Shown here: positions 17,194 to 53,392 of the stretch, piece after piece
How positions within the stretch are numbered: the first letter of the stretch is position 1
Layout: each line of letters opens with the position of its first letter
Source: a virus
Taxonomy: Duplodnaviria > Caudoviricetes
Length of the DNA stretch: 64,000 bases
Direction: 5' to 3' (one strand)
Virus record (IMG/VR): IMGVR_UViG_3300042274_000144
Span: 1 to 64,000 of that record
The notes under the pieces: generated by a model
The model's database searches: none
Told to the model about the DNA's origin: nothing
The model's input: the letters and a program-made list of their open reading frames with translations, nothing else
Made by a program: the position numbers and the translations under genes

Positions 17194-18792
17194 ATGAAAA
17201 CAGACAAGTACGATCAGCGAATTATTGACATCGCAAAGCGTGCGAACGAGATGCGCTCTGCCCTGCTGGAGCCTGTTGTTGACCAGAACAACGGCGAGTT
17301 TATTGGCAACCGGGTGGAACAGGACGCACGCTTGAAGGACGCCGCGAAGGGGTCCGTCTACGAAAACATGGGTGAGGGAGCATCGACCGTGCTTGCAACT
17401 CACTCCAAGAGCTTGCAGCGTTACTGTACCGACAATGGCATGCCTTCAGATGAGCTTTTGGCTTCGGCCCACAAGTCTATCGAGAACGCCATGCTCATTA
17501 CCGAAAGTGAAAAACAGAACCGTCCGGGCGGCATTTTCGAGAGTGCCGAAATCAGCACTACCGAGGGTATCTTGATGCGTGACCGCATGGTTGCACTCAT
17601 CCTCCCGGTTATGCTGCAGTCTGTCACTTCCCGCATGGTGACGTTTATCCCCGGCGATTACAACCAATCTGAAATGTTCCGCGTTCGCCGTGTTGCCGGA
17701 AGTAACTTTGGCGACCTGAGCAAGGGCGATATCATTGATTACGACTACAATAGCCGTTACTCAGTGATGGATCAGCGTTGGCAGGCACCTTCGGGCGACG
17801 GCACCAAGACCGGCTCCACCGGTGAGTTCCAGCTTGACTCTGCAACCGTGTTTGGCACGGCTTACCCGTTCAAGCATAAGAGCGTCAAGATTCTGCATGA
17901 CCACGACATCGTAGCCGAGGACAACGGCAGCGGCTCTATCTTCGGTAGCTTCCTTGTGGGCGAGACCACTGTTAACGTTACCGGCACCGTGGACTATGCA
18001 ACCGGCACCGTAAGTCCCGTGTTCTCCGTTGCGCCCGCGAGCGGCATTGAGATCCACATCGGATTCGATGTTGACATTGAAAAAGACCCGGCACTTATCC
18101 CGCGTGTGGATCACACCATGGAAGCCGAAACTCTGTACCCGCATGAGAGTGCCATCAGCGCGAATACCACGCTCCAGGCTCTCTGGGGTCTGCGCCGCGA
18201 GTACAACCTGAACGCGGACAACATGGCAATGCAGGCAATGCGTAACCTCCTGTCTGCCGACAAGGACCGCAAGATTCTGCGTGACCTGTATTTCTTTGCC
18301 AAGGGCGAAACCGAGTGGAACATGACCGTTCCCTCCGGAACCTACTACCACGAGCACTACGAGACTGTTAAGGAAGAACTGCTCAACATCGACACCTACC
18401 TGATAGGTCAGAACGGATTTTCCGGACTGGTCGGATTGGTTGCCGACCCCAAGGCTAGCGCTATTTTCCGCAGCCTGAAGGCTCCTTTCTTCACTCCCGC
18501 GCCTGGTTATCGCAAGCTGGCACAGCCTCACTATGTGGGCCGTCTGTTCGGCATGTGGGACCTCTACGAAGACCCGGCTGCTGAAGAGTACACCGCGCTG
18601 TGCTTTGCTAAAGGCTCCAGCCATGGTGAAGCGGGTTACGTTGCGGGTGACGCTATTCCGGCGCTGAGCTTCAAGCATCCCACCATGACCGATCTTACCT
18701 ATCGCTCTACACTGTGGGACCTTGGCTACCGCGACCTTAACCCCTTCTATGGACGTAAGTGCTTCACTAAGCTCAAGATCACCACTGCATAA
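17194..18792 (+). CDS. Major capsid protein precursor (P1 gp23-like)
   Basis: 532 aa, strong RBS, about 116-aa propeptide ending at IFE/SA, followed by a stem-loop. Confidence 0.8.
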   Translation: MKTDKYDQRIIDIAKRANEMRSALLEPVVDQNNGEFIGNRVEQDARLKDAAKGSVYENMGEGASTVLATHSKSLQRYCTDNGMPSDELLASAHKSIENAMLITESEKQNRPGGIFESAEISTTEGILMRDRMVALILPVMLQSVTSRMVTFIPGDYNQSEMFRVRRVAGSNFGDLSKGDIIDYDYNSRYSVMDQRWQAPSGDGTKTGSTGEFQLDSATVFGTAYPFKHKSVKILHDHDIVAEDNGSGSIFGSFLVGETTVNVTGTVDYATGTVSPVFSVAPASGIEIHIGFDVDIEKDPALIPRVDHTMEAETLYPHESAISANTTLQALWGLRREYNLNADNMAMQAMRNLLSADKDRKILRDLYFFAKGETEWNMTVPSGTYYHEHYETVKEELLNIDTYLIGQNGFSGLVGLVADPKASAIFRSLKAPFFTPAPGYRKLAQPHYVGRLFGMWDLYEDPAAEEYTALCFAKGSSHGEAGYVAGDAIPALSFKHPTMTDLTYRSTLWDLGYRDLNPFYGRKCFTKLKITTA

Positions 18793-33737: not shown

Positions 33738-33903
33738 CGATCTTTGCCAGACGGCAGCTTGCCACGGCTTTCTGTCCAGAGCTTGTCATTCGGGGCCGCT
33801 ATCCTGACTGTCGATTACGAGTTGCGGCAGACAAACATAACAAGTAGCGCTGCGGCAAGTACCCTTAATGGAGAAAGTGGCAAGCGCTAACTATGGAGAC
33901 TCG

Positions 33904-38618: not shown

Positions 38619-39227
38619 ATGTCTCAATCTACCCGACAGGTTAAATTAAACTTTGACCGCATGACGGAATCTGGCCTGAAACCCCTGACGAAAAAGCTTG
38701 AGGGACATGGCCTTAAAATCACTGACATTAAAGCCACCAACCGGCCTAAACGCGAATCCGGCTTTTTAACCAAGGCCGCAATGTTCGAGTTCGACACCGG
38801 GCAAAAGCTCATGGTGCGCGTGAAGGCAGACGGCACGGTGTTTCAGGTCAAGCTTAATAACCGCGTCATCCCCATTCGCCACGTCGATGACATGGGTAAG
38901 GCCGTAAAGGAAATAGTCGATGCCGTGCAGGACAACGCCAGGGCGTTTGTGAAAGCACGCGAGAGACGCCTTGCTAAAAAGAAGCTGCAAATCGACAAGC
39001 CTGCCCCTATCCGCACCACCCGTAAAGAGAAAATCGAACAGCAGGAAGCCGCCTTGAAGGAATTGCAGTCAGAGGCTGACGGCATTCAGGAAAGAATCAG
39101 CGCTACCACCACCACCCTGAGTGAGAAAACGGGCAGAGTGGAGGAGCTGCAAGCCGAGCTGCAAACGCTTCAGGAGCGAGGCACCACACTGGAGCAACAA
39201 CTTAAAGAGATGACGGAGGCTGCATAA
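38619..39227 (+). CDS. hdf: Hdf-like Dar system protein
   Basis: 202 aa, KRESG...F.FDTGQ...VRVKADG.VFQVKLN...PI pattern, coiled-coil tail; first gene of the operon as in P1. Confidence 0.7.
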   Translation: MSQSTRQVKLNFDRMTESGLKPLTKKLEGHGLKITDIKATNRPKRESGFLTKAAMFEFDTGQKLMVRVKADGTVFQVKLNNRVIPIRHVDDMGKAVKEIVDAVQDNARAFVKARERRLAKKKLQIDKPAPIRTTRKEKIEQQEAALKELQSEADGIQERISATTTTLSEKTGRVEELQAELQTLQERGTTLEQQLKEMTEAA

Positions 39228-39229
39228 CC

Positions 39230-42200
39230 ATGAATCGTGACGATGTAAAAAGCCATATTGACCCCCGGTTTAACGGTATGCGCGTGCGCGGGGGAGAGGA
39301 TTTCTTTGCCAAGGGCTTCACCGAGGGGGAGCTGAATGCAGCCTACTACCAACTGACTGCGGCCCGGCATGATGACTGGATGATCCTTGAGGCTGCCGAT
39401 TTTACCGACGTAGACGCGTTCTACAACCCGGGTGAAGAGGCTGTTCCCGAAGGTTTTATCCTGGAGGCCGTGACCATCGAAAGCTTCTCGCGCACGTCTA
39501 AGCGCATGATGGCCGTGCAGCGCGTACTTGGCAAGCACCTGTCCGACAATGAAATGATCGACCCGCTGGAGCCGATTGTAGGTAAGCCGAAAAAGAGCGG
39601 CAACTTTGCTTACGTGACCGTGCAGCTCCCCTTCACTGACGGCCAGACGGTTTCCATCGTGTTTCACTCCCCGGAAGGTGACAAAAAGAAGATCGGCCCG
39701 AGCGATCAGCTGATTGCCTTCCGTTGGCTGCTCAATAAGCGCGACATTACCCAGGTGGTAGCTCCCGAGGCTGGCAAGGAGGTCAGTCTTGAACAGATCA
39801 GCAAGCGCATTGCGCAGCTGGTTGAGAAAAACCACAAGCGGTTTGTTTCCACACAGAAACAGGCGGTTGAGGAAAAGAAGCGCCTTGAAGAGCTTACCAA
39901 GCAGGCCGAGGATGCCGAGCAGCAGAATCAGGAGCTTGCAGAGCAGCTTTCCGAACTGGCAGACAAGGCCGAATCCGCAGACCTGCGCATCCAGAACACC
40001 CAAAGTCGAATCGACAAGCAGAAAGAGCGCAATGCAGAGCTTGAAGCCGAAATAGCGGCACTGCAGGCCAAGCGCAACGCTGATTCTGTTGGTGGGGATG
40101 CTGGGGGTGATGATGCTAAGTATGACCCTGAATCTGGCAACCCTCTTATTTCTGTTACCGCTGAATATCCGACACTTGAGAACAGAAATTCATGGAGCGG
40201 TGCAGCGCAAGATGTTTTCCATTTTACAGCAAAATCCGCACCCGAGAGCTTTCAGGAAATGGAAAACTTTATGGCGGACATCGCAAAGCAGGCCGGTATA
40301 AGTAAATACGGACGCCCCATTGTATTTAAAGACGATGTTGCATGGAAGGGCATTAAGGGCAAGAAGTACGCTTATGTGGCACGTGTGACAATAGACGGTG
40401 AAGATGGCAAACCAGCAATAAGGCTGGAGGCCAAAATGTCTCCCGACCAGGTTAATGGCGGCTATCGAACCACCAAGAGAAATCTGAATGGTGTTGATAG
40501 TCACAATTCGGTGAAAAGCCTTATCAGATCAGTCTCTCAAAAAGGGGAGCCGATTCCAATATCCCAAAAGGCTTTTGAGGACATTCTTGGTGCTTCCAAC
40601 GTAACTGATGGCGGCAATGCTGACGGCAGCGACACGAAGCAAGAATACAACAATGAATCAGAGGCAATGACTGCTGTCAGCAATGCCATAAAGGAGTCAC
40701 GGCAGCCCGGCTTCGGAAAATTTCGTGACCCTGAGTTTGTGAAAACCATCAATGAGGGTGTTAAGCGTGGGTGGCTCAACAAGAGGTCTGAAACTCAGAT
40801 TGACTGGACAGAGGAAGGCGTTAAGGCTTACCGCGAGCTGATTGCAGACAATAGCAGCGCCAACGACACCCCCGAAATGGAGCCCATCGAAAACCTCCCT
40901 GAAGGCTGGGAGCCGGTAAAAACCGAGATTGGCATTACCTATCGCAAGACCGTTAACGACGCCACGGTAGGCATTGAGGTGACACGGCGTGATGATGGAA
41001 CATTCAACGTCGAGCGTGTTGCCAAGGGCGGTGAAGAGCGCAGCAACCATGCCATTGCACAGGATGAAAAAAGGGCCGAGCGCCTTGCCCTGGAGCAGAT
41101 GAGCCAGGTTGATGCTGACTTTCAGCAGGGCGACAGTGACACGCCCGATGATGACGATGCCGACAAGCCAGCGCCAGCCATCCAGCCTGCCAAAGAGCAG
41201 AAGGGCAACCCGGCAAAGCGCATTGCCAAGCTGGTGCATAACCTTGGTATCGAATCCAAGATAATGAAGCCGGAGTTTTACGCCAAGGTGCCGAACGATC
41301 CGTACTTGGACCTTGTAATTGAATCGCACAAGGCCCCTGAAGGTGATGGGCTGCTGCTGTATTTCACCCACTACATCGAGGAGGGCGGCGACAAGATCAT
41401 TGATTCTGAGATTGTCATGCTGACCTACCCCGAAACCGGCCTGCTGAAGATGGTAGAGGTTGCCGGGCGCGGTCCACGCGGTGAGTTCCGCAGCAAAGAC
41501 AACTCTTTTGCCAACATCATTACCAAGAACCTGATTGACCAGGGCTTTGATAAGCAGGCGGTGAATGTGATTGGTGAGGGTGAGGGTCAAGGTGAAGGGG
41601 AGCCGGAACCTGACACCCGCGAACCTAAGCTCCCCGAGCCCACAAGCCGACAGGATGGTACAGCCGACAAGCACATTGAAGTTGAAATCGAGGACTTGCC
41701 CGCATTTGGGAAGGCCGAGATATTGAATGTCGGCAGCGAGAACATCTATGTCAAAAAAGATGGTCTGTTCTATTTCGCCAAGGTCTACAGCACCGAGAAG
41801 TACCAGCCGGGCATGTACGATTTTGCCAACGACAAGCCGGTAGATGAAGGCGCAAGCGCCAACTTCTCCCCCGGCGATACCGTGTATTTCTACCATGAAG
41901 CCAAGGGCGAATATGTGGAGGCCAACTATCGCGGTCCGCAGGGCGATGACAAGGCTGTTGTCGTTTACGACGGCTCAAACTGGACGCTTGGCAATGATGA
42001 GCTTTTTGCTGAGAAACCGGCAGAGCCAAGTGAGCCCGAACCCGATACCGCAAACCCGGCAGTAAACGCGGCCCGCGAAACCCTGCAGTCCATCATTGAC
42101 GGCGATTACGACAATGACCCGGACACGCTGGATAAGCTGCTCGACCAGGCGGCTGAAACGCTCGAAGAGGCCGGGGTTGACCTTGACGCTGACGAACAGA

Positions 42201-42262
42201 TCAACGCGGCAGCCGATCACGCAGCAGACCTTGCGATTGCGGCAGCCAAGGAGGTGCAGTAA
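39230..42262 (+). CDS. darA: DarA-like defence-against-restriction protein, extended
   Basis: DarA_N-type FTDGQTVSIVFH.P...WLLNKRDITQVVAPE.G...L.EKN..RF; coiled coil; acidic C-terminal helix bundle. Confidence 0.8.
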   Translation: MNRDDVKSHIDPRFNGMRVRGGEDFFAKGFTEGELNAAYYQLTAARHDDWMILEAADFTDVDAFYNPGEEAVPEGFILEAVTIESFSRTSKRMMAVQRVLGKHLSDNEMIDPLEPIVGKPKKSGNFAYVTVQLPFTDGQTVSIVFHSPEGDKKKIGPSDQLIAFRWLLNKRDITQVVAPEAGKEVSLEQISKRIAQLVEKNHKRFVSTQKQAVEEKKRLEELTKQAEDAEQQNQELAEQLSELADKAESADLRIQNTQSRIDKQKERNAELEAEIAALQAKRNADSVGGDAGGDDAKYDPESGNPLISVTAEYPTLENRNSWSGAAQDVFHFTAKSAPESFQEMENFMADIAKQAGISKYGRPIVFKDDVAWKGIKGKKYAYVARVTIDGEDGKPAIRLEAKMSPDQVNGGYRTTKRNLNGVDSHNSVKSLIRSVSQKGEPIPISQKAFEDILGASNVTDGGNADGSDTKQEYNNESEAMTAVSNAIKESRQPGFGKFRDPEFVKTINEGVKRGWLNKRSETQIDWTEEGVKAYRELIADNSSANDTPEMEPIENLPEGWEPVKTEIGITYRKTVNDATVGIEVTRRDDGTFNVERVAKGGEERSNHAIAQDEKRAERLALEQMSQVDADFQQGDSDTPDDDDADKPAPAIQPAKEQKGNPAKRIAKLVHNLGIESKIMKPEFYAKVPNDPYLDLVIESHKAPEGDGLLLYFTHYIEEGGDKIIDSEIVMLTYPETGLLKMVEVAGRGPRGEFRSKDNSFANIITKNLIDQGFDKQAVNVIGEGEGQGEGEPEPDTREPKLPEPTSRQDGTADKHIEVEIEDLPAFGKAEILNVGSENIYVKKDGLFYFAKVYSTEKYQPGMYDFANDKPVDEGASANFSPGDTVYFYHEAKGEYVEANYRGPQGDDKAVVVYDGSNWTLGNDELFAEKPAEPSEPEPDTANPAVNAARETLQSIIDGDYDNDPDTLDKLLDQAAETLEEAGVDLDADEQINAAADHAADLAIAAAKEVQ

Positions 42263-43248
42263 TGACCTTGTCATTCAAGGAGAAGCGCGAACTCACAAAG
42301 ATAGTCACAGGCAAAACCACCGAGATTCAAAATGGCGGGCTGTCGTTCAAGGAAAAGCGGGCCGCAACCAAGGCCCTGAACGATGCCGTTGTTAAGCTGA
42401 ACGGCAAGATTGACAGCATGGACAAAAAGGGGGCCGACACGCCCCCTGCACTCCAGGACCTGATTGACGGCAAGTTCAATGACCTTACGCCGGTTCAGTT
42501 TATTGCCAAGCTCGAAGAAATCAACAAGGAGCTTGACAGTGTTGACCCGCTCAAAGAGCCCACGCTGAATTACATCGAGGCCAAGCAGGAGCAAGGCGTA
42601 CTCGAATCCGCAGACATGGAGGCACTTCAGGCGTTTGGGCGCGGCATGGGTCAGGAAAAGCCACAGCAGGGCCATGGTAGCGCCGTGCGCGTCATGCCGA
42701 TTGCCGGGCCGGGGCAGCGTAACCCGAAGGCTATTACCATTGACATTGACGGCAACTTTACCGAGCCCGAGACCTTCCGCGAGATCATCCACACCATTGA
42801 GCAGGCAACACCCGGCGATGAAATAACGCTGAAGATCAACTCTCCCGGTGGGCGCACCGATTCGGCGCAGGCGGTGTACGTGGCGCTGCTTGAAACAGCG
42901 GCAAAGACCATTGCCAAGATCATCAACGCGGCCTCCTCCGGCTCTATCGTTGCCATGGCTTGCGACGAAATCCAGACAACGCCGTTTTGCACCATGATGA
43001 TTCACAATGCCAGCGGTGGCACACGCGGCAAAATGGGCGACATGAGGGCGCAGACCACCTACCATGAAAACCATTTCCGCAAGTGGTTCGGGCAGCTCTA
43101 TGCTGGATACCTAAGTAACGAGGAAATTGACGACCTGATGAAAGGGCAGGACTTCTGGCACGAAGAGGACGAAATTAAAAAGCGCCTTGAAAACTGGAAG
43201 CCCTTGCGCGAACGCCTGCAGGAAGATGGATCAGTGGTGGAGGCGTAG
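42262..43248 (+). CDS. DdrA-like N-terminal module fused to a ClpP-family (S14) serine protease
   Basis: LSFKEKR duplicated N-terminus; INSPGG, AASSGS, MIH, DFW ClpP motifs. Confidence 0.8.
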   Translation: MTLSFKEKRELTKIVTGKTTEIQNGGLSFKEKRAATKALNDAVVKLNGKIDSMDKKGADTPPALQDLIDGKFNDLTPVQFIAKLEEINKELDSVDPLKEPTLNYIEAKQEQGVLESADMEALQAFGRGMGQEKPQQGHGSAVRVMPIAGPGQRNPKAITIDIDGNFTEPETFREIIHTIEQATPGDEITLKINSPGGRTDSAQAVYVALLETAAKTIAKIINAASSGSIVAMACDEIQTTPFCTMMIHNASGGTRGKMGDMRAQTTYHENHFRKWFGQLYAGYLSNEEIDDLMKGQDFWHEEDEIKKRLENWKPLRERLQEDGSVVEA

Positions 43249-43354
43249 CGCATGACTACATACAGCACAGTTCCCGGCCAGGTTGAGCGCGGCCTTGAGT
43301 TCATAAGAGCCGCGCAGAACCTGAAAACACTGAAGCAAGGAGTTGCGATAGCCT

Positions 43355-43600
43355 TTGGAATCAATGAGTCGCAACTTGATGAGCGCATTGCTGGTGCGGA
43401 GTTGGCCGAAGGATGAGGACGGAAAGCAGGAATATCAGCCGTTCAACTCAATTCAGAAGGCGAGGAACTATGTGTATTTGAGCCTAACCTTCAAGGATAG
43501 ATACACGAGGGAAGATTATTACTTTTGGGCAACACTTCAATCTGTGCCACAATGGTTTGACGAAGAAAAGGGATTGCCTAAGCTGGGAGAATCAGCATGA
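43355..43600 (+). CDS. Small hypothetical protein (possibly 3' part of a frameshifted gene starting 43252)
   Basis: Fills the gap in the operon and overlaps the next ATG; a 54-aa ORF at 43252-43416 precedes it in another frame. Confidence 0.35.
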   Translation: MESMSRNLMSALLVRSWPKDEDGKQEYQPFNSIQKARNYVYLSLTFKDRYTREDYYFWATLQSVPQWFDEEKGLPKLGESA

Positions 43601-44949
43601 CACCATATTCGTTTCGCATTGAAACACGCCTTGGGCCGCTCAATGTAGAGCTTCCGGAAACAGAGTGGGAAGAACCGGAGGGGGTGCGTCTGCACGCACA
43701 ATCCGACAGCCCGGTAGGTGAGTTTAGGCGCTTCGTGCGCGAGCATGGAATTGGGCTTAATGGAGTACGCTTCTCTGCTGACCTGTTTGCCCCGCAAGAC
43801 CTTCATGCTGCCCTCATACTGAGCGGCAACGACTACTTTTCATCGTGGGAAATAGAGTACGGATATAACCCGCATGACGATGAGGATGAGGACAATGGTA
43901 TCCTTGAATCATCCATCGACAGCGCAGCCAAAGACACCGACACCAAGCCCACCGAAGGGCAAAAACTGCAAGGCAATTACAAGAAGGGTTCCATTTCAAT
44001 AGATGGCCTTAAAGTCAAGATAGAAAACCCCGCAGGCAGCAAGCGCAGTGGCACCGATCCTAACGGTAAGAAGTGGGAAAGCAAGATGTGCTCTCACTAC
44101 GGCTATATTTCCGGCACCGAAAGCAAGGACGGTGACGAAGTTGACGTGTTTATTCGGCCCGGGATCATGCCGGAGGATGCCGTGAGAATGCCTGTGTTTG
44201 TGATTGACCAGGTTGACCCGAAAACCGGCAAGTTCGATGAGCACAAGGCCGTCATTGGACACAGGACTGCGCACAAAGCAAAGGCGGCATACCTTGAGTG
44301 CTACGAGAAGGGCTGGCAGGGGCTCGGCAAAACCGTGCGCATGGAGTGGCGAGACTTCAAAAAATGGGTGCAGGATAAGACTGGAACAAAGAAGCCTGCC
44401 GATGATAGCGTTTTTGAATCAACCCCCCAGCGCGAAGATTATGCTTTCGGCTGCCTCATGGCCTCACTGTCTGAGACCACATCTCAGGCGCTTTCCCATT
44501 TTGCCCGATCCTTGCCTGCCGGAGACATAAAAGAGTATTGCGATACCGGCGAGCCATGGATAGAGGAAAACCACCACATAACAATCAAGCATGGCATTCA
44601 GGACGGCATTACGGTTGACCGTGTTGAAAACGCCATGCCGGGGCTCCCTGTTATGTACGGGAGGCTTGGCAGACTGGCTGTGTTTGAGCACGACAGCTAC
44701 GATGTGCTTTACATCGAGGTCTACAGCCGAGACCTTACGGAAGCCAATCGTGCTATCGCCAACAATTTAACCTCTTACGAAACACAGGATCGTTATGTAC
44801 CCCATATCACCCTGGCATACCTACGCCCTGGTGCTGGCCGCAAGTACACAGGCATGGATTTCTTTTCTGGTATTGAACTGAAGCTCACCGAGATGGTCTA
44901 CACCGACCCGGACGGCAACGCATTCACCTTTTCACTTCAAAAGGGCTGA
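43597..44949 (+). CDS. Three-domain protein: unknown / InPase-like / 2H phosphoesterase (Acb1-like)
   Basis: GNYKKG...IENPAGS.RSG...HYGYI.GT...DGDEVDVF (InPase domain of polyvalent proteins); HITI and YVPHITLAY (two HxT motifs). Confidence 0.85.
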   Translation: MTPYSFRIETRLGPLNVELPETEWEEPEGVRLHAQSDSPVGEFRRFVREHGIGLNGVRFSADLFAPQDLHAALILSGNDYFSSWEIEYGYNPHDDEDEDNGILESSIDSAAKDTDTKPTEGQKLQGNYKKGSISIDGLKVKIENPAGSKRSGTDPNGKKWESKMCSHYGYISGTESKDGDEVDVFIRPGIMPEDAVRMPVFVIDQVDPKTGKFDEHKAVIGHRTAHKAKAAYLECYEKGWQGLGKTVRMEWRDFKKWVQDKTGTKKPADDSVFESTPQREDYAFGCLMASLSETTSQALSHFARSLPAGDIKEYCDTGEPWIEENHHITIKHGIQDGITVDRVENAMPGLPVMYGRLGRLAVFEHDSYDVLYIEVYSRDLTEANRAIANNLTSYETQDRYVPHITLAYLRPGAGRKYTGMDFFSGIELKLTEMVYTDPDGNAFTFSLQKG

Positions 44950-44951
44950 AC

Positions 44952-47900
44952 ATGATCTTAGAACGCACATCCACAACCGACATCAAAGGCATATCGCGAC
45001 AGGTAATGAGCGCCCGCAACCTGGGAGATATTACCTCTATACTGCGAAACATTTTCGACCTCAACGGCACGCCTGTTGCCGATCCGCAGGGGTACAAGTC
45101 CGGCAATTCAGATTACGGCTTGCGCGTGCGCGGCGTGAAGGCCCGCGAGCGCATCAACGATGCCGTGCGTGACATTCTGACGCAGGTTGATGATCCGGAA
45201 GAGCTGACAGATGATCAGCGCGACATGCTCTTGCAGTATTCCGGGCGCGGGGGCACCTCAGACAATAGCCAGTATGAATATTACACCCCTACCCATGTTG
45301 CGGAAGGCGTGTGGGACGCCATGCGTGAAAACGGCTTCGTGAATGGCAATGTGCTTGATCCATGTACCGGCTCAGGGATATTCAGCGGCACCAAGCCTGA
45401 AGGCTCCATTATTACCGGCAATGACCTTGACCCGGTGGGTTCCAAGGTTGCGGCCCTGCTCAACCCTGAAGACCAGATCAGCAACACCCCGTTCGAGAAG
45501 ATTGCCGTAGACACGCCGGACAACACCTTTGATGCCGTAGTTGGGAATGTGCCGTTTGGCAACGCACGCGGCAAGTCGGCACACATCGACCGCGCTTACA
45601 AAAAAGAGCGCCTTATCGAGCGGTATTTCCTGCAGCGCGTGCTTGACAAGGTTAAGCCCGGTGGCCTGTGCTGCCTGGTAGTGCCTATCAATATCGTGGG
45701 GCAGACCGGCAAGAAGTGGGAACAGTTCAGAATGGAAGTATCGCGCAAGGCTGAGTTCCTGGGTGCGCACAAACTTCCGTCCAAGACCTTTGGAGCACAA
45801 GGCACCGATACCGTTGTTGACGTTATTGTCTTAAAGAAACACCCGGAGGACTTGCTTGAAAAGATAAACGACCTGGATGCTCAGGTGCTATGGGATGCCA
45901 GTGTCTACTTCAAGGAGTTCATCAAGGGTAAGTATTGGCAGGGCGAAGGGCGGCGCTTCATCATGGGGAAATATACCCCCAAGGTTCCCGGCGACCGCTG
46001 GAGCCGCGAAACCGTGGATGGCGACGTTGACAACGAAGGGTTGAAGCGCAAGCTGGCGCAGAAGTTCAGCTCCCGCATTGCATGGGATGAGCTTGACGCG
46101 GCAGAGCCCCGGCCCATTGCATACGCTGACGGCGACCGACGCATGATCGGCGGCACCATGTACGAGCTTGCCGGTGGGCAGTGGCAGCCGGTAGACGAAA
46201 GGCAAGAGGCTGTTGAGATTTCCCGTGAGGCTTTCGGTGCTGAATCCCTCGAAGAGCTGGAAGGGCTACTGCAGAGTGCAGAGGGGCGGCTTAGCTTGAA
46301 CTTCGAGCAGGCCGACAACATTGCGCAGAACTATCCCGGCACCATGCCCGAAGAGCTTAGGGCTGCACATGAGTTTGCCAGCAGGCAGCCGGAGGAGATG
46401 CGCGGTCAGATCATGCGCGGCACCCTCATTGGCGGTATGATTGCCCGGGCGCAGAACGCCTTTGACCAGGGCGAGGATGTGACGGCTGAGCTTGAGCGTA
46501 TCAAGGCATACATAACTGAGGACATTGAGCGTCACGGCCTGCCATCGAACAACAAAAAGCTGCGGCTTTCCGGCGCTGATGCCAAGATGTACATGCGCTT
46601 CATGTCTGCCGTTGACGCTGAAGGCAATTTCAGCGACTTCCTGAAGGGCGAACGCGAACGAACCGGCAGTGGACAGGCTTACAACACCAATGATCCAGAG
46701 GCTATCGTTTCGCACCTGTTCGTTCGTGAGGACCGAGATTTTGTCGAGCTTGACGATATTGCCGAACGGTACACCGGAGAGCGTGAAATTAAAGACCTTG
46801 GCGACCTGGCCGAGTTCCCGGGCATTGCCGTTGATCCGGTCAGTGGCACCGCACTTCCTATGGATAAGTATTGCGTGGGCGATGCTTACGGTAAAGTGGC
46901 AAAGCTGCAGGAGGCCATTGCTGATACCGATGACCAGCGTCTTAAAGCACGCTTCCAGGAGCAGATAGATGAGCTGATGCGGCGCGTTAATCCGGTAAGC
47001 TCTGAGCGCATCACCTTTGGCTTAAAGCAGCGCTGGTTTAACCCTGAGTACCTTGTTGAGTTCCTGAAGGAGCAAGGATATGAGGGCGTTCAGTATGGCA
47101 AACCGTCTGTGGAGTTCGTGGAGGATTACGCGGGCAACATGCGCGAGCGCGAGACCTTTATCACTCCGTATGATGGCCCGGACGGTGAGTTTCGCGGCCT
47201 GCGCGGGCGCTTCACCGAAGAGCTGCAGAAATACCTCAATGGTGGCAAGATCGGCAACCGCAAGGACGATTCAGACCTGCACCATGAGCGCACGCGGATG
47301 CTTGAAGAACAGTTCAATAGCTGGATGAAACAGCGTGCGGACATTGATGAGATCGTTGCCGAGTACAACCGGCGATTCAACGGCCACATTCCGGCTGAGT
47401 ACAGCGATGAAGACCTGGGTATTGATGAGTACCTGGGCGAGGAAATCAAGCTACACGGATACCAGAACGCTGAAATCAGGCGGCTCTCTGAAGAGGGGCG
47501 CGGCATTTGCGGTTTCAATGTGGGGCTCGGAAAAAGCTTTGTGAGTCTCGGCCTGACAGCCTTTAACCTGAAAAAAGGCAGGTCAAAGCGCACCTGCATT
47601 GTTGTCCCGAAGAACACCCTGGAAAACTGGTATCACGAGGCGCGAGCCATCTATTCCGAGTCCTTCATGCGCTCCAGTGTGCATGTCATCGGCGTGCAGC
47701 CGGTAGCGGGCAAGGGCGGCAAAGTTAAACGTGTGCCTGTCCTCGATGAGCGCGGCGAACCCGTGGTTAAGGGCGGCAAGCAGATTTTCCGCGATGAAAT
47801 AAAGGTTAAGCTAGGTGCCAATGACAAGCTCGATGAGCTGTGGAGCGCACTGCAGTCTAATGCAAAGCTTATCGTTATGCACCGCGACCTGTTTGGACGC

Positions 47901-50900
47901 ATCCCCATCATGGATACCACGGTGGATGAATATGCCGGAAACATGACCATGGACGCGCTCAAGGATAAAAACGGTGTGCCCTTCGGCAAGAAAAAGGGCA
48001 AGTCCTACGATGAGGACAAGCAAAAAGCCAAGCTGGAACAGCGGTTTTCTGACACCGGCACGGAAAAGCGCGACGAATACCCGTACTTTGAGGAGTTCGG
48101 GTTTGACAATGTGATACTTGATGAGGTCCACGACTACCGCAACGCCTTCACCCCTGGGCGCGGCACCGCAGATATGCACTACCTGCCGACCGGCTCCACC
48201 TCCCAGCGGGCGCTGGATATTCACGTAAAGACCGATTACCTGCGGCGCAAGTTCGGCAACCGTGGTGTTATCGGGCTTTCGGCAACCCCCATTGTCAATT
48301 CACCGTTCGAGATTTACAGCCAGCTCTCCATGGTGTGCGACAAGTCAGACTTTGAGCGCATGGGCGTCTACAGCGTGGATCAGTTTGTTGATATTTTCGG
48401 CAAGGTCGAGCAGGTGGATAAGCTGAAGCTTTCGGGCAAGATTGATTCTGGCCCCGGGCTGGTTGGCTTCCAGAACCTCGATGCCTTGCGTGGCATGTTC
48501 AACAAATATGTCAACCTGAAGTCAGCCGAGGACGTGGAGAGCGAGATACACGTACCGGAGGGCAAGCGTCAGCCGGTCGAGGTTGAGCTGTCCGAAGAGC
48601 AGCAGGTAGCTTACGAGGAGTTGCGCGCGCGTGCGGCAAAGTCAGCAGACCCCGCTACCCCGGCAGAGGAAAAAGAGCATGTTTTCAGCCTGATCCGCGA
48701 AATGGACAGGGTGACTACCGACATGGACCTTTACCGTCGCACCATGTCCTTTGTGCTCCCGAGCAAGTACCGCAAGGCGGTTGAAGACCTGGAAAAGAAG
48801 CTGCCGGAAACCTACACCGCCACGGAAAAGGATGAGGAAACGGGCGAAAAGGTCAAGGTGCAGGTATCCTTCACAGCATCGTACCGTGATCATGGCTCAA
48901 CCTTTACGTTTGTGGTTCCGGAAAGCTACGAATCCCTTGTTGTGGCGCATTTTGAGGACTTCGGCATTGTAGAATCAGAGGTGGCGCATCCAATATCCCC
49001 AAAATATGCCGCCATGCTGGATAAGGTGCGCACGGATTATGAGTCTGGCGGTAAAGTGATTATCTTTACCGAGGAAAAGACTCAGCACCGTAAACTGCAA
49101 CGGATCATAACCAATCACCTGGGTGTGCCCGCTAAAGAAATCGGCATTATCAACGCAGCCGAAATCAAGGGCGATGACATGGACAAGATCGGAGCTGCAT
49201 TCAACACCGGCAAGCTGCGCGTAGTGATTGCCAACCGCAAAGCCGAGGTGGGTATCAACCTACAAAAAGGCACCACATCCATTATCCACCTGACGTTGCC
49301 CCTGGTTCCCGCAAGCTTCATCCAGCGCGAAGGCCGGGCAGTGCGACAGGGCAATGTAAACGAAAGCGTGGACATCGTAGAAATCAATGCCAAGGGCTCA
49401 TTCGATGCCTACCGCAAGGACATTCTGCGGGCCAAGTCAAACTGGCTCAACGAGCTGATGACCGGCGAAGATGCCACGGCTAAGAATCAGAACGTTGAGG
49501 ATGTTTCAGAGTTGCTTGAATTGCTGGCCGAGAACCCGGAAGAGGCTAAGCGTATTCATAAGGAGCGCCTGGGAAAGGAGAAAGCCAAGCGTGAAGAGCG
49601 GCGCAAAGCTGACACCATCAACAAGCTGAAGCTGGTTGCCAACGCAGAGAAGGCGCTGGAAAACATGGACAGCACCAAGGAGGCTGAGCGCCAGAAGCTT
49701 GCGGATAAAATTGCACAGGCCAATACCGGCATTGCGCAGGCGAAAAAGCGGCTCGAAAAAGACCCAGACAGCGACACGGCCAAGCGCAAGCTAAAGTTCA
49801 GCGAAAAGCAGCTCAAGGCAAGCACGGAAAAGCTCAACACCATTGATGTGCGCTACAAAGACATGGAAAAGACCCTGCAGCAGCGCATCAAGCAGACCAA
49901 GGGTTATCTGCGGCAAAAACACGAGGCCGGAGAGCTGCCCTTCGATGCGAGTCTGATTGAAAAGACCGACAGCTTTGTTGCTGATGCAAAAGGCAACGTC
50001 TATGCCGAGGGCGATACCTACGAGCTTCACGAGGTCAACCGCTACGGCAACCGCGAAAAACAGTTCGCGGGAGTGCTGAAGGTCAAGGCTGTTCATCCGG
50101 ACAGCAAGGAAATAGAGTTTGATTTTCTGGTAGGCAGCCCGAGCTATGACATGCGCGACCGTGTGCGCGTGGCCTCCCTGGACTCTGGCGGCAAGATACT
50201 GCAGAAGTGCTCTTACTCTGAAAAAGAGTTAGCCCTGAAGCGCCTTGAGGCGAAAGGCGATGTCCAATATGAGAAGCTGCCCGATTTGGGCGTCGACAAG
50301 CAACTGTTTGCTGAATCTTACGACACTATTAAGAGCCGCGTCAGGGGTCCGCTGGTGTACGAGGATAATAACGGCGATGTGCAGATTGGCTACGCCTACG
50401 AAGAACCGGAGTTTGAAGGACGCCTGCTCTATCCCGACATCCAGAATGAGCAGTTCCAGAAGCGCGTTTTCACCCGCTACCTACAGATACGTAGACGCAG
50501 CGATGAGGAGGGGGTGAATCCACCCTTTGAGGTGCGCAACACGCTCCAGAAGCTCTACGGGTACAGCTTCGAAGCCAAGGCCGAGGAGTACGGCGAAAAA
50601 GCCACTGAGCAGCAAATTAGAGAGGCTGTTGCGGACGCCTGGACAGAATATGTGGCGCGAAACGTGGGCGATGATGTTACGATGCACGAATATCTGCAAA
50701 AAGAGTGGTATTCTGCAACCAAAGAGATTGCAGGGCAGGTATCAAGCATTGGCGACAACACGGCTGAGATTAAACGCTTTGTCGATGAGTTTATTTCGAT
50801 AAAGAAGCGGGAGGCACGCGAAGAGCACGAGGCGCAACTTGCAGCCGAACGCAAGAAAGAAGAGGCCGAAGAGCAGGTCCGCATTGAGAAACTTAAAGAA

Positions 50901-51194
50901 AAAGGCGAATATGCAGAAATTCCACAAGAAATTGCTGAAAAGTATAATGGAATTGGGGTAAAACTGTTCGTGAACACTGTCGCCTTTGGCGGCTACGAGC
51001 CTTACTCGCGTTACATGCTTACTGATGAGCGCTTTGGGGGGCTGAGCAAGCAGTTCTTTGCCGGGCGCAAAAACCAGAGCCACAAGGATGAATGGGAGGC
51101 TACCGGAACAAAGCAGTGGCCTGAGCGCGACGGCTTCTGGTGGCATATCCCAACCGACAAAGACCTGAACGCACTTTACGAACTCCTTTCATAA
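44952..51194 (+). CDS. darB: DarB-like N6-adenine methyltransferase / SNF2 helicase fusion
   Basis: YYTP, VLDPCTGSG, GNVPFG; GLGKS, LDEVH, SATP, EVGINL, QREGRAVRQGN. Confidence 0.88.
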   Translation: MILERTSTTDIKGISRQVMSARNLGDITSILRNIFDLNGTPVADPQGYKSGNSDYGLRVRGVKARERINDAVRDILTQVDDPEELTDDQRDMLLQYSGRGGTSDNSQYEYYTPTHVAEGVWDAMRENGFVNGNVLDPCTGSGIFSGTKPEGSIITGNDLDPVGSKVAALLNPEDQISNTPFEKIAVDTPDNTFDAVVGNVPFGNARGKSAHIDRAYKKERLIERYFLQRVLDKVKPGGLCCLVVPINIVGQTGKKWEQFRMEVSRKAEFLGAHKLPSKTFGAQGTDTVVDVIVLKKHPEDLLEKINDLDAQVLWDASVYFKEFIKGKYWQGEGRRFIMGKYTPKVPGDRWSRETVDGDVDNEGLKRKLAQKFSSRIAWDELDAAEPRPIAYADGDRRMIGGTMYELAGGQWQPVDERQEAVEISREAFGAESLEELEGLLQSAEGRLSLNFEQADNIAQNYPGTMPEELRAAHEFASRQPEEMRGQIMRGTLIGGMIARAQNAFDQGEDVTAELERIKAYITEDIERHGLPSNNKKLRLSGADAKMYMRFMSAVDAEGNFSDFLKGERERTGSGQAYNTNDPEAIVSHLFVREDRDFVELDDIAERYTGEREIKDLGDLAEFPGIAVDPVSGTALPMDKYCVGDAYGKVAKLQEAIADTDDQRLKARFQEQIDELMRRVNPVSSERITFGLKQRWFNPEYLVEFLKEQGYEGVQYGKPSVEFVEDYAGNMRERETFITPYDGPDGEFRGLRGRFTEELQKYLNGGKIGNRKDDSDLHHERTRMLEEQFNSWMKQRADIDEIVAEYNRRFNGHIPAEYSDEDLGIDEYLGEEIKLHGYQNAEIRRLSEEGRGICGFNVGLGKSFVSLGLTAFNLKKGRSKRTCIVVPKNTLENWYHEARAIYSESFMRSSVHVIGVQPVAGKGGKVKRVPVLDERGEPVVKGGKQIFRDEIKVKLGANDKLDELWSALQSNAKLIVMHRDLFGRIPIMDTTVDEYAGNMTMDALKDKNGVPFGKKKGKSYDEDKQKAKLEQRFSDTGTEKRDEYPYFEEFGFDNVILDEVHDYRNAFTPGRGTADMHYLPTGSTSQRALDIHVKTDYLRRKFGNRGVIGLSATPIVNSPFEIYSQLSMVCDKSDFERMGVYSVDQFVDIFGKVEQVDKLKLSGKIDSGPGLVGFQNLDALRGMFNKYVNLKSAEDVESEIHVPEGKRQPVEVELSEEQQVAYEELRARAAKSADPATPAEEKEHVFSLIREMDRVTTDMDLYRRTMSFVLPSKYRKAVEDLEKKLPETYTATEKDEETGEKVKVQVSFTASYRDHGSTFTFVVPESYESLVVAHFEDFGIVESEVAHPISPKYAAMLDKVRTDYESGGKVIIFTEEKTQHRKLQRIITNHLGVPAKEIGIINAAEIKGDDMDKIGAAFNTGKLRVVIANRKAEVGINLQKGTTSIIHLTLPLVPASFIQREGRAVRQGNVNESVDIVEINAKGSFDAYRKDILRAKSNWLNELMTGEDATAKNQNVEDVSELLELLAENPEEAKRIHKERLGKEKAKREERRKADTINKLKLVANAEKALENMDSTKEAERQKLADKIAQANTGIAQAKKRLEKDPDSDTAKRKLKFSEKQLKASTEKLNTIDVRYKDMEKTLQQRIKQTKGYLRQKHEAGELPFDASLIEKTDSFVADAKGNVYAEGDTYELHEVNRYGNREKQFAGVLKVKAVHPDSKEIEFDFLVGSPSYDMRDRVRVASLDSGGKILQKCSYSEKELALKRLEAKGDVQYEKLPDLGVDKQLFAESYDTIKSRVRGPLVYEDNNGDVQIGYAYEEPEFEGRLLYPDIQNEQFQKRVFTRYLQIRRRSDEEGVNPPFEVRNTLQKLYGYSFEAKAEEYGEKATEQQIREAVADAWTEYVARNVGDDVTMHEYLQKEWYSATKEIAGQVSSIGDNTAEIKRFVDEFISIKKREAREEHEAQLAAERKKEEAEEQVRIEKLKEKGEYAEIPQEIAEKYNGIGVKLFVNTVAFGGYEPYSRYMLTDERFGGLSKQFFAGRKNQSHKDEWEATGTKQWPERDGFWWHIPTDKDLNALYELLS

Positions 51195-51634: not shown

Positions 51635-53392
51635 ATGGCGAAAGCACGACGCAGCAAGAAAAAAGACGAACCCACGAGCGCAAGCACGCAGGAGATCGGC
51701 AGCAAGGCTCTTGACCTTCTGTTTCCGGCCCGGCGTGATGTAAGCGGATATGAGGAGCGCAGCGTTGACCTTCCCGCAACGGCTGCCGGGTACTTTGACG
51801 GGTTTATCGGCGGTGAGTACCTGGACCCGGTTAAGCAAGTGTTCAATGCCACATCCGAAGAGGATAAGCTTGTTCATACTCTGCCGGTTGAGCGCGTGGC
51901 AAAATATCCGTTCCTAGAGGCAATGAGCAAAGACCCAACGATTGACAGCGGTATCAAAATGCACATTGCCAATGCCCTGTCAGCCACGTCCGACACCGGT
52001 GAAATTCTGAAGATTGAAAGCACCGGCGATGCTGACGATCCTATTGTCAATGACCTGAACGATACGTTTAAGGAGCTTATAAACAAGAACATTCAGGAGT
52101 GGGCTTACACAGCTGCCACATTCGGTGCTGATTACGTGCGCGTGTACGGAGAGCGCGGCGTTGGTGTAACCCATGTGCGCAGCGACTTCTACACACACCC
52201 GCGTTTCATCCGCGAGTTTGAGAGGGCGGGCAGTCTGGCCGGGTTTACCTGCGCTTACCAGCATGGCAACCGCAATATCCGGCTCATGGAACCCTGGACT
52301 TTTGTGGGCTTCAAAATCCCGTACTGGCACCGCGATAACAATGCCGAGCCATACCGTGTTGATGCTTCCCCCATAGACCTTGCAAATGATGACTGGCAGA
52401 GCGAGTCAATAGCTGAAACGCAGCATTACGGCACCAGCCTGATAGAAACATCTTACGGACCGTGGTTCGACCTGATGGAGGCTGTTTTAAGTCTGAACAT
52501 GAGCCGTAAAAACGCTGCCCGGCTCGAACGGCTTATCGGCGTAAACACCGGAAAGCTCGACCCGCAAAAAGCTGCCAGCTACCTTGCATCCATTTCCAGC
52601 AACATCAAGAAGGCCAATAACAAAATGGCCGAGCAGTCGTTGCGCAAGGGTTTCGTGCAGACAGTCCTGAACCATATTATCCCTATTTTCGGGGATAGCC
52701 GGGGGCGCCTGGACATCAATACCGTGCAGGGAACGCCGGACATCCAGGGCATTGAGGATGTAACTTTCCATGTCAAGCGCCTGGGTAGCGCCCTGGGTAT
52801 TGACCCCTCACTGCTGGGCTTCGGTGAGATGCTTTCAGGCGGGCTTGGAGATGGCGGCTTTTTCCGCATGAGCATACTGGCCTCTATTAAGGCTCAGTCT
52901 CTACGTAGGGCCATGAAAACCGGACTTGAGCGCCTTTTCGATATTCACGTTGCCTACAAATACGGCAAGGTGTTTCTGCCGGGACAAAAGCCCTGGCGCA
53001 TAGTATTTAACAGCGTATCCACCGCTCTTGAGCGCGAGGAACGCGAAAACCTGGAAGCAAGGGCGAACCTTGCCCTTTCCATCGGCGGCATAGTGCCGCA
53101 GATCGACCCGGAGATGATGACCACGGACAAGCGCGCGCTTATGAACTACATCTTCACCGACATGCTCAAGATTGAAGAGGAAAAATTCAAGCAGATTTTT
53201 CCGGAGGGACTTGCAGACAAAAAAACTGAAGAGCAAAACGCAGGCGGTGGCATGGGAGGCGGCATGTTCGAGTCTGCCATGCCCGGCAGCGGCAAGGGCA
53301 GTGACGGCCTGACTGAAGAGCAAAAAGCAGAGATATACAACCTGATAAGCGATTTTTACGATGGAGGCGAAAATGAGCAGCAATATCGTTGA
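51635..53392 (+). CDS. Portal protein (P1 Prt-like)
   Basis: DPTIDSG...H...ALS, GID..LLGF..GGLGDGGF; darB-prt-pro order as in P1. Confidence 0.85.
   Translation: MAKARRSKKKDEPTSASTQEIGSKALDLLFPARRDVSGYEERSVDLPATAAGYFDGFIGGEYLDPVKQVFNATSEEDKLVHTLPVERVAKYPFLEAMSKDPTIDSGIKMHIANALSATSDTGEILKIESTGDADDPIVNDLNDTFKELINKNIQEWAYTAATFGADYVRVYGERGVGVTHVRSDFYTHPRFIREFERAGSLAGFTCAYQHGNRNIRLMEPWTFVGFKIPYWHRDNNAEPYRVDASPIDLANDDWQSESIAETQHYGTSLIETSYGPWFDLMEAVLSLNMSRKNAARLERLIGVNTGKLDPQKAASYLASISSNIKKANNKMAEQSLRKGFVQTVLNHIIPIFGDSRGRLDINTVQGTPDIQGIEDVTFHVKRLGSALGIDPSLLGFGEMLSGGLGDGGFFRMSILASIKAQSLRRAMKTGLERLFDIHVAYKYGKVFLPGQKPWRIVFNSVSTALEREERENLEARANLALSIGGIVPQIDPEMMTTDKRALMNYIFTDMLKIEEEKFKQIFPEGLADKKTEEQNAGGGMGGGMFESAMPGSGKGSDGLTEEQKAEIYNLISDFYDGGENEQQYR

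Follow-up and report, generated by a model that had tools for sequence, protein, structure and literature searches.

An InPase-2H phosphoesterase gene in the Dar operon of a distant P1-like phage: a candidate head-cargo polyprotein

In phage T4, the prohead protease gp21 removes the targeting part of the internal proteins IPI-III and Alt, which then enter the cell along with the DNA. A study of phage P1 refers to this T4 packaging system; it found all six Dar proteins in the virion by LC-MS/MS and mapped the maturation site of the capsid protein gp23, E120↓S121 (the arrow marks the cut), by Edman analysis (PMC9024508). The Dar proteins exit the head upon ejection (PMC12810830). The general idea of packaged signal-degrading enzymes is not new either, as packaged 2H and InPase domains were predicted to possibly degrade defence nucleotides in the 2017 description of “multi-tool” (polyvalent) phage proteins (Iyer, Burroughs, Anand, de Souza, and Aravind, 2017, J Bacteriol; PMC5512222). 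Among 2H superfamily relatives, T4 Acb1 and PDE-9 cleave CBASS signals (for PDE-9, according to Doherty et al., 2025, bioRxiv 10.1101/2025.08.21.671373). The same preprint describes 2H PDE-11 as purified and assayed on a messenger panel, and reports two viral 2H structural groups that cleaved 0 of 18 messengers. In the literature searched, there was no report of an assayed InPase-family domain or of a proven virion-packaged 2H phosphodiesterase.

The gene described here is a new example of these multi-tool proteins. It lies in a window of 64,000 nucleotides (positions 1 to 64,000 of the IMG/VR record IMGVR_UViG_3300042274_000144), to which all coordinates refer. A 450-aa ORF at 43597-44949 (+) encodes three consecutive modules, an N-terminal module (N-module), an InPase domain, and a 2H phosphoesterase, a layout that had been noted from the letters alone and is confirmed. 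The whole gene, delimited by its translation, by Pfam and PHROG assignments, and by a metagenomic homologue (P0002) 89% identical to the protein, is considered a candidate cargo polyprotein. Searched by megablast, 50,697 phage records contained no match to the gene, an IMG/VR scan for close relatives with P0001 found none, and an alignment-based scan returned almost exclusively InPase matches in unrelated phages.

The sequence-only reading had placed the gene in a Dar operon, and its neighbours bear this out. The gene order is hdf-darA-ddrA(+ClpP)-X-darB-portal-Pro, where X is the InPase-2H gene; P1 has ddrB in the X position. An Hdf-like gene (38619-39227, +) and a gene for a DarA-like protein of 1010 aa (39230-42262, +), both assigned by Pfam and PHROG, are followed by a gene in which a DdrA-like tag is joined to a ClpP-family protease with VLE↓S between them (42262-43248, +; Pfam/PHROG and motif scan). 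The order of this upstream block (38619..43248, +) is kept in the homologous contig L009, and the Dar gene order also occurs in contigs L009 and L006. Downstream, the ORF for a DarB-like methyltransferase-helicase of 2080 aa (44952..51194, +; Pfam Eco57I, SNF2, and Helicase_C; PHROG DarB-like) begins 3 nt past the stop codon of the InPase-2H gene. The portal gene (51635-53392, +; PHROG portal) comes next, encoding MFE↓S near its C-terminus, and then a P1 Pro-type prohead protease with five sites and 37% identity to P1 Pro (53361-54356, +). A scan of 38-55 kb for sigma-70 promoters and terminators found signals at shuffle level, and is therefore uninformative on operon boundaries.

The preferred reading, for which the chances are put at about even, is that the product of the gene is a polyprotein carried as cargo in the head of a distant P1-like myophage, and that the InPase and 2H enzymes freed from it remove nucleotide-based defence products. 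The polyprotein would be made late, together with the other Dar proteins, and its N-terminal ~100 residues would bring it into the prohead. There, cuts by Pro after E104 and E274 would yield two enzymes, an InPase-type phosphoanhydride hydrolase of ~170 aa and a 2H phosphodiesterase of ~176 aa, which would remain in the head until ejection carries them into the cell alongside the DNA and the rest of the Dar proteins. With its HxT/HxT tetrad, the 2H enzyme would perform metal-independent transesterification via a 2',3'-cyclic phosphate, while the InPase, through its conserved Asp/Glu cluster, would hydrolyse a pyrophosphate bond in a metal-dependent reaction. The most probable role of the pair would be the clearing of host-defence nucleotide products before phage gene expression. 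The substrates are a guess; cyclic or 2'-5'/3'-5' linked oligonucleotides are candidates for the 2H enzyme, and a di- or triphosphate-bearing nucleotide or PPi for the InPase. Destruction of bacterial alarm nucleotides by such cargo is plausible. Cleavage of CBASS or CRISPR signals in particular is not readable from sequence, because two of the viral 2H groups tested by Doherty et al. left all 18 messengers uncleaved.

The 2H module (residues 275-450; 44419..44946, +) was assigned through a family search, alignment A1, an AF2 model, fold searches, and hhalign. Both HxT motifs are invariant among the 40 family members of A1. The first, H327-I-T329 (44575..44583, +), corresponds to H53/T55 of A1 and aligns with H44/T46 of T4 Acb1; the second, H403-I-T405 (44803..44811, +), lies within Y-x-P-H-x-T-x-A-Y, aligns with H113/T115 of T4 Acb1, and, with its flanking Tyr residues, corresponds to invariant A1 positions (Y126/H129/T131/Y134), so the catalytic residues are intact. 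The AF2 model of the domain (pLDDT 92.6), which was used in place of a full-length single-sequence model (pLDDT 32.7), and fold searches place the module in the 2H fold. Pfam PF13563 (2_5_RNA_ligase2; cut-off 27) scores 27.7 bits with the whole protein and 30.2 with the domain alone, and matches 40/40 members of the family. Profile and alignment place the module in the same polyvalent-protein 2H clade as 2H PDE-11, as judged from Maribacter phage Colly_1 gp180 (YP_010357429.1; hhalign probability 99.8%, E 7.5e-28; 29% identity by tblastn; TM 0.72/0.78) and from viral models of the same clade (TM 0.72-0.84 in BFVD). Its relatives measure between about 160 and 6373 aa and occur joined to DdrB-ParB, MuF, portal, Zeta toxin, methyltransferase, or RadC+InPase. 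Fold ranking gives no 2H subfamily, as LigT, CPDase, USB1, and Acb1 are tied (Foldseek E 4e-6 to 3e-5; VIA Z 13-15).

The best surviving alternative, though an unlikely one, is RNA-end processing. The injected 2H enzyme would open 2',3'-cyclic phosphate ends that host anticodon nucleases or HEPN/abortive-infection RNases leave on tRNA or mRNA, or would serve as a USB1-like RNase on host RNA. In such a scheme, the InPase would act on a terminal pyrophosphate or triphosphate, trimming it. Some of these nucleases (PrrC, for instance) become active once type I restriction is blocked, which is the effect of Dar. However, the RNA ligase family PF09414 had no match in the 77-kb, 85%-complete record (the T4-type model PF09511 was uninformative, as its control matched no genome), and the polyvalent 2H clade was never seen with ligases by Iyer et al. 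(PMC5512222). The nearest solved enzyme by sequence profile is moreover the cGAMP-cleaving PDE-9 (E 9e-8), with CPDase and PH0099 ranking behind it.

The InPase module (residues 105-274, Pfam envelope 121-259; 43909..44418, +) is a family I pyrophosphatase-like OB-fold. Its earlier assignment to the InPase-type module of polyvalent proteins stands on PF18823 (171.6 bits against a cut-off of 26.8; E 9.6e-51), and E143, D178, D180, D183, D214, E215, and K217 are invariant or nearly so across relatives. According to Iyer et al. (2017, PMC5512222), InPase domains of the polyvalent clade do not have the beta-hairpin insert found in cellular family I PPases. The portal sequence of phage Pa193 terminates in an InPase domain, and 36% of the domain studied here aligns to the C-terminal part of that portal (chain 9b41_L; E 1e-25).

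Somewhat less probable than RNA-end processing is that the InPase simply scavenges PPi and thereby speeds early nucleotidyl transfer in transcription or replication of the incoming DNA, with the 2H domain as an independent passenger that has the delivery vehicle alone in common with it. This is the alternative that Iyer et al. themselves offered for InPase (PMC5512222), and it is consistent with the intact PPase-type acidic cluster and with the rarity of 2H among InPase proteins (5 of 120 InPase matches carry it). Against it, the partners of InPase in other proteins are mainly nucleotide-modifying effectors (NUDIX, 5'(3')-deoxyribonucleotidase, GGDEF, and Zeta/AAA_33 kinases), and the order InPase-then-2H is fixed in three unrelated architectures, recurring in P0124 (RadC-InPase-2H) and in the 3402-aa P0156. 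Host PPase is also already abundant.

A bolder extension of the preferred reading, held to be similarly improbable, is that InPase-then-2H forms a functional two-enzyme cassette, arriving ready-made with the DNA, whose members together break down a single class of defence molecule without an assigned phage counter-enzyme, and that the Dar slot between protease sites is a general exchange point for pre-packaged counter-defence enzymes. An example of a target would be a 5'-triphosphorylated linear 2'-5'/3'-5' oligonucleotide, of which the InPase would take the phosphoanhydride end and the 2H enzyme cut the phosphodiester. Other targets may be an ADP-ribose-derived signal or a pyrophosphorylated or cyclic-phosphate tRNA 3' end.

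The 2H module had also been called Acb1-like. This holds only at the superfamily level, and identity with Acb1 does not follow. It is improbable that the module is a true orthologue of Acb1, dedicated to countering CBASS and with the same substrate range (3'3'-cGAMP and related CBASS signals). In its favour are the common HxT/HxT spacing and Y-x-P-H-I-T-L-x-Y block, the position of F363 at W74 of T4 Acb1 in the hhalign alignment, and the top structural-alignment identity, which falls to FBB1 Acb1 (22-25%). Some clade relatives also just clear the Pfam Acb1 cut-off (27.9-43.6 bits). The studied module itself, however, scores 16.7 and 19.0 bits with PF23474 (Acb1; cut-off 27) over model positions 57-111 only, T4 Acb1 reaches an hhalign probability of just 61% against the 2H family profile, and tblastn with the 2H domain did not find Acb1 of T4-like phages. 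Acb1-labelled viral models in BFVD rank 10th or lower (TM 0.53-0.60 versus 0.72-0.84 for the module's own clade). Further Acb1 hallmarks compared were the base-stacking aromatics Y12, W74, and F107 and the C-terminal lid with the stacking Trp W147. The F107 position holds Gln and no aromatic, and the last 15 residues of the protein contain no Trp. The missing C-terminal lid is not decisive on Acb1 kinship, because PDE-9 employs an N-terminal lid in its place (Doherty et al., 2025, 10.1101/2025.08.21.671373).

Delivery in the head would depend on the N-module (residues 1-104; 43597..43908, +), a proposed capsid-targeting or pro-peptide part that is conserved in P0002-P0004. Homology links it to the N-terminal ~100 residues of a DarB-like protein from the Photobacterium toruni phage-plasmid NZ_AP024857, a protein that starts with N-module plus InPase. 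It matched no known family, and an ESM Atlas search gave no usable match; by BLAST, it had no similarity to P1 DdrA, to the DdrA-like tag of the neighbouring gene, to the DarB N-terminus of its own phage, or to the N-terminal targeting region of P1 DarB.

The modules are bracketed by a putative cleavage motif, as had been claimed, with ILE↓S and VFE↓S at both junctions. Predicted Pro site 1, I102-L103-E104↓S105 (43900..43911, +), is identical (ILES↓S) in P0002-P0005, and predicted site 2 is V272-F273-E274↓S275 (44410..44421, +); both come from a motif scan. The motif, [hydrophobic][hydrophobic]E↓S, takes as its reference the predicted maturation site G-I-F-E117↓S118 of the major capsid protein (17194..18792, +), a homologue of P1-type gp23 with 30% identity over 99% of its own length. 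In alignment A2, GIFE↓S falls on A-M-L-E↓S-V-A-A-E-M, which is the E120↓S121 site of P1 gp23. Five head proteins together contain the motif 10 times, where 0.76 matches are expected (about 13-fold enriched), and the 8169 aa of eleven other large genes contain it only twice. In P1, its pattern is alike, with five matches in Pro and others in the portal C-terminus and DdrB. The junction sites are kept in relatives of 37-46% identity, even with extra modules (LPD3, unknown) between them, and hydrophobic-hydrophobic-E-S directly precedes the 2H module in P0003, P0004, P0005, P0122, P0123, and P0124. P0122 is a DdrB-ParB protein whose C-terminal 2H domain is 45% identical to the studied one.

As the motif is anchored on the P1 site, enriched in head proteins, and conserved in relatives, packaging and Pro cleavage are well supported by inference. 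Together with the operon position and the fusions of its modules to DdrB-ParB and DarB, this agrees with the earlier suggestion of head cargo, and the InPase-2H protein is very probably cut by the prohead protease into separate enzymes that would leave with the DNA. That it is instead an ordinary cytoplasmic late protein, with two motif matches due to chance or flexible linkers, is highly improbable, for although sheath-adjacent and tail genes also contain strict matches to the motif and the N-module is unlike any proven capsid-targeting sequence, the matches in the InPase-2H protein lie exactly at junctions kept in diverged relatives, DdrB-ParB, DarB, and portal proteins occur with these modules fused to them, and a counter-defence enzyme made late in the cytoplasm would presumably miss its moment.

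If the cargo reading is true, the heads of P1-like phages hold more than anti-restriction proteins, and prohead-protease sites set a modular slot in which InPase, 2H, LPD3, ClpP-family protease, and ParB-like domains are swapped. An N-terminal tag followed by hydrophobic-hydrophobic-E↓S junctions would then be a search rule for pre-packaged counter-defence enzymes, and P1 a genetically tractable chassis for trying them. It would also offer a first test of whether few injected protein molecules suffice for nucleotide-signal degradation. The enzymatic idea was already in print in 2017, activity of the Acb1 type has been on record since 2022, and the gain is therefore an instructive example rather than a new principle.

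Several known systems resemble the locus in part. Like phage polyvalent proteins (PMC5512222), the InPase-2H protein combines several effector domains in one polypeptide among virion genes. In contrast to them, it is smaller (450 aa, two enzymes), has predicted prohead-protease sites in place of an embedded zincin peptidase, and is embedded in a P1-type Dar operon instead of being fused to MuF or portal. The InPase module shares the YGY...DGDxVD and D-x-K acidic cluster with E. coli Ppa, the family I soluble inorganic pyrophosphatase, although the similarity is weak (E about 0.7). 2H PDE-11 (Colly_1 gp180) is of the same 2H family as the C-terminal module, but is a stand-alone 161-aa protein among small genes, not virion cargo. 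Acb1 (T4 gp57B, Erwinia phage FBB1) and PDE-9 (PDB 7T26/7T27, 9Q2G) share the 2H fold, the HxT/HxT tetrad, the Y-x-P-H-x-T-L-x-Y block, and an aromatic aligned with W74, whereas the present module is about 25-35 residues longer, has no lid Trp among its last 15 residues, falls below the Pfam Acb1 cut-off, and has a different structural neighbourhood among viral models.

Closest to the predicted processing are the T4 internal proteins (IPI-III, Alt), whose N-terminal targeting part is likewise cut off after Glu. They differ in that here two enzymes are predicted from one precursor and the context is hydrophobic-hydrophobic-E↓S. The P1 Dar system (Hdf, DarA, DdrA, DdrB, DarB, Ulx) resembles the locus in gene neighbours, their order, the portal/Pro pair, and the pattern of protease sites, a comparison that implies no antirestriction role for the InPase or the 2H enzyme. 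Unlike the studied phage, P1 keeps darB in a separate, divergent unit, and the place taken in the studied phage by a ClpP-family protease and the InPase-2H gene is held in P1 by DdrB (ParB-like plus peptidase-like).

The open reading frame at 43597-44949 (+), preceded by a good Shine-Dalgarno sequence, encodes 450 residues and lies in an IMG/VR record of 77,113 bp, of which the window covers the first 64 kb; no near relative of the record was found among deposited phages. Its middle domain is the polyvalent-type InPase module that the sequence-only reading had named (Pfam PF18823, residues 121-259, E 9.6e-51). The C-terminal third matches 2_5_RNA_ligase2 marginally (27.7 bits, cut-off 27), and the first 104 residues match no Pfam family. 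Both HxT strings quoted in that reading are present, HHITI at residues 326-330 and YVPHITLAY at residues 400-408, and the T4 57B string that it gave, DYTPHITLSY, is correct.

The gene is indeed encoded in a Dar operon, as had been proposed. Upstream stand, in order, an Hdf-like gene, a DarA-like gene (39230-42262; 1010 aa, 639 in the P1 counterpart) and, last before the InPase-2H gene, a fusion of a DdrA-like tag with a ClpP-family protease (42262-43248). A DarB-like methyltransferase-helicase of 2080 aa follows directly, and then a T4-type portal (51635-53392) and a homologue of the prohead protease Pro (53361-54356) that is 37% identical to P1 Pro. Since Pro, the capsid protein (17194-18792; 30% identity to P1-type gp23) and the Dar neighbours resemble those of P1, the phage is, judging from its genes, a distant P1-like myophage with the darA and darB units joined. 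The arrangement is kept in metagenomic relatives: contig L009 has the order Hdf, DarA, ClpP-like, InPase-2H and then a large gene, and contig L006 encodes a DdrB-ParB protein and, after it, one of LPD3-InPase-2H architecture.

Several neighbouring features are worth recording. The product of 42262-43248 carries its DdrA-like tag (PHROG 1855) at residues 57-110 and a ClpP/S49-family domain at residues 154-317, with VLE/S between them; a second, probably packaged protease of ClpP/S49 type is unusual beside the phage's own P1 Pro-type head protease. The DarA-like protein (39230-42262) has a DUF6908 (residues 665-773) behind DarA_N and a coiled-coil part, and a single strict protease-type motif at residue 696. 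A 350-bp spacer (43249-43596) separates the ClpP-like and InPase-2H genes and contains a 54-codon ORF (43253-43417, start MTTYST) and an overlapping 81-codon TTG ORF, neither with a family match; because the same two genes are just 5 nt apart in L009, it looks like an insertion. Two long tail-fibre-like genes with Ig-like domains flank a reverse transcriptase (33868-34929; RVT_1, E 1.6e-24), consistent with a diversity-generating retroelement acting on the fibre.

Cleavage of gp23 in P1 takes place at E120/S121 and gives the mature N-terminus SVAAEM (PMC9024508); in pairwise alignment A-M-L-E/S of P1-type gp23 coincides exactly with G-I-F-E/S of the present phage's capsid protein. The site pattern scanned, [ILVMF][ILVMF]ES, occurs five times in Pro, once each in the portal C-terminal region, the DdrA-tag/ClpP junction and the capsid, and twice in the protein under study. 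This amounts to 10 occurrences in 2226 residues of head proteins, with 0.76 expected from shuffles, and eleven other large genes hold 2 in 8169 residues. The P1 distribution is alike (Pro five times, the portal C-terminus, DdrB once). The two sites of the InPase-2H protein fall after residues 104 and 274, exactly in the inter-domain linkers, one ahead of each enzyme module; the sequence-only reading had described both modules as bracketed by the putative cleavage motif. In relatives at 37-46% identity a site stands directly ahead of every InPase and every 2H module, and this placement is kept where extra modules lie between sites (LPD3 in P0003, a 180-residue module without known family in P0004). 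It is also kept in a 1169-aa DdrB-ParB protein (P0122), before a C-terminal 2H domain 45% identical to the one studied. Such a junction pattern is the one expected of a precursor cut in the prohead, as is predicted here, and because Pro acts in the prohead it provides good indirect evidence for packaging.

In the portal (51635-53392) the motif lies ~40 residues from the C-terminus, and in P1 Prt 12 residues from the end; together with the five copies in each Pro (P1 Pro and Prt at L004 9313-12034), this suggests Pro self-processing and portal C-terminal trimming throughout the P1 group. A gene after the tail sheath (21076-21792; PHROG 1053, probably tube) contains A-I-F-E-S-A-E, near-identical to G-I-F-E-S-A-E of the capsid; the head protease is not expected to encounter a tail protein, and the similarity is either chance or unexplained.

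The N-terminal module has no resemblance to known capsid-targeting sequences. It is homologous to the start of a 2344-aa DarB-like protein (L011 6896-13930) of a 67-kb P1-like phage-plasmid of Photobacterium toruni (NZ_AP024857), in which N-module and InPase precede the DarB body; the homology to the N-module and InPase studied here spans that protein's first ~265 residues. In that plasmid, the cargo is thus fused to DarB and not stand-alone. In P1, a reporter is directed to the capsid by no more than the N-terminal 30 residues of DarB (PMC9024508), and from this and the homology to a DarB start it is a reasonable inference by analogy that residues 1-104 serve in targeting or anchoring.

By sequence, the InPase module is typical of the polyvalent-protein clade, and its invariant positions match the family I pyrophosphatase cluster YGY...DGDxVD...FDEHK. 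The portal sequence of Pseudomonas phage Pa193 (9b41) terminates in the same domain (E 1e-25), and fusion partners elsewhere include NUDIX, 5'(3')-deoxyribonucleotidase, GGDEF, Zeta-type kinase, ART and DarA_N. A literature search found no published assay of a polyvalent-clade InPase. In P0124 (RadC-InPase-2H, 784 aa) and P0156 (3402 aa) the InPase is followed directly by 2H, and the tandem recurs in the same order in otherwise unrelated polyvalent architectures.

The C-terminal domain is a genuine, intact 2H phosphoesterase. With residues 275-450 as query, an exhaustive HMMER search retrieved 3807 cluster representatives (E<=1e-3), which are either stand-alone proteins of ~160-260 aa or modules in proteins that reach 6373 aa. 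All four HxT residues (two His, two Thr) are invariant across an alignment of 40 members, as are a G and two Y in the P-H-x-T-x-x-Y-G / Y-x-P-H-x-T-x-A-Y blocks; PF13563 is matched by 40/40 relatives, and the Acb1 model is also touched by 36/40. An AlphaFold2 model of residues 275-450 built with this alignment has a pLDDT of 92.6.

The label Acb1-like does not hold in the family sense: the Pfam Acb1 score is only 16.7 bits (cut-off 27). Structure comparison of the predicted model bore out the 2H fold shared with Acb1 and did not single Acb1 out, which tied with LigT, CPDase and USB1. T4 Acb1 matches the family profile of the 2H domain at 61% probability (E 8e-5), and in profile alignment both HxT motifs are in register, W74 falling on F363 and Y110 on Y400. 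The top solved structure by profile is 9Q2G, "2H PDE-9" (E 9e-8), then plant CPDase and PH0099. The closest predicted viral structures (TM 0.72-0.84) are gp180 of Maribacter phage Colly_1 and unnamed modules of the "2'-5' RNA ligase superfamily"; Acb1-labelled proteins rank 10 or lower (TM 0.53-0.60). Colly_1 gp180 is also the top isolated-phage match by tblastn and matches the 2H family profile at 99.8% (E 7.5e-28). In Doherty et al. 2025 (bioRxiv 10.1101/2025.08.21.671373), it is named "2H PDE 11" among purified, assayed enzymes. There, substrate range differs sharply between viral 2H structural groups: group 3 (T4 Acb1, PDE-8, PDE-9) is broad, and groups 1 and 6 cleaved 0/18 messengers. These differences bear on any substrate reading of the present domain.

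We propose that the precursor would be made late and brought into the prohead by its N-module, and that Pro would cut after E104 and E274, freeing two enzymes that would exit along with the DNA in the manner of the P1 Dar proteins (PMC12810830). Going by family, the 2H enzyme would catalyze metal-independent 2'-OH attack on the adjacent phosphodiester or cyclic phosphate opening, and the InPase metal-dependent phosphoanhydride hydrolysis. Nucleotide defence signals are ranked first as candidate substrates because the 2H clade avoids RNA ligases (PMC5512222), the record yielded no PF09414-type RNA ligase when searched, and the nearest characterised relatives by profile cleave cGAMP. The ranking also draws on the nucleotide enzymes that partner the InPase and on the recurring InPase-then-2H order. 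Live rivals are RNA-end processing, plain PPi scavenging by the InPase, and chance.

2H and InPase have been described as specific to phage-type polyvalent proteins by Iyer et al. 2017 (PMC5512222), who argued that both domains are packaged and proposed that they may remove nucleotides of counter-invader systems. The enzymology of stand-alone 2H proteins comes from Acb1 (2022) and the 2H survey of Doherty et al. 2025. The present case adds a junction motif cleanly anchored on an experimentally mapped protease site, cargo placed within a P1-type Dar operon, evidence for module exchange between protease sites, and the finding that one family member (PDE-11) has already been purified. Compared with P1, the InPase-2H gene takes the slot that ddrB occupies; compared with Acb1, the protein is alike in its HxT motifs, but differs in falling below the Pfam cut-off.
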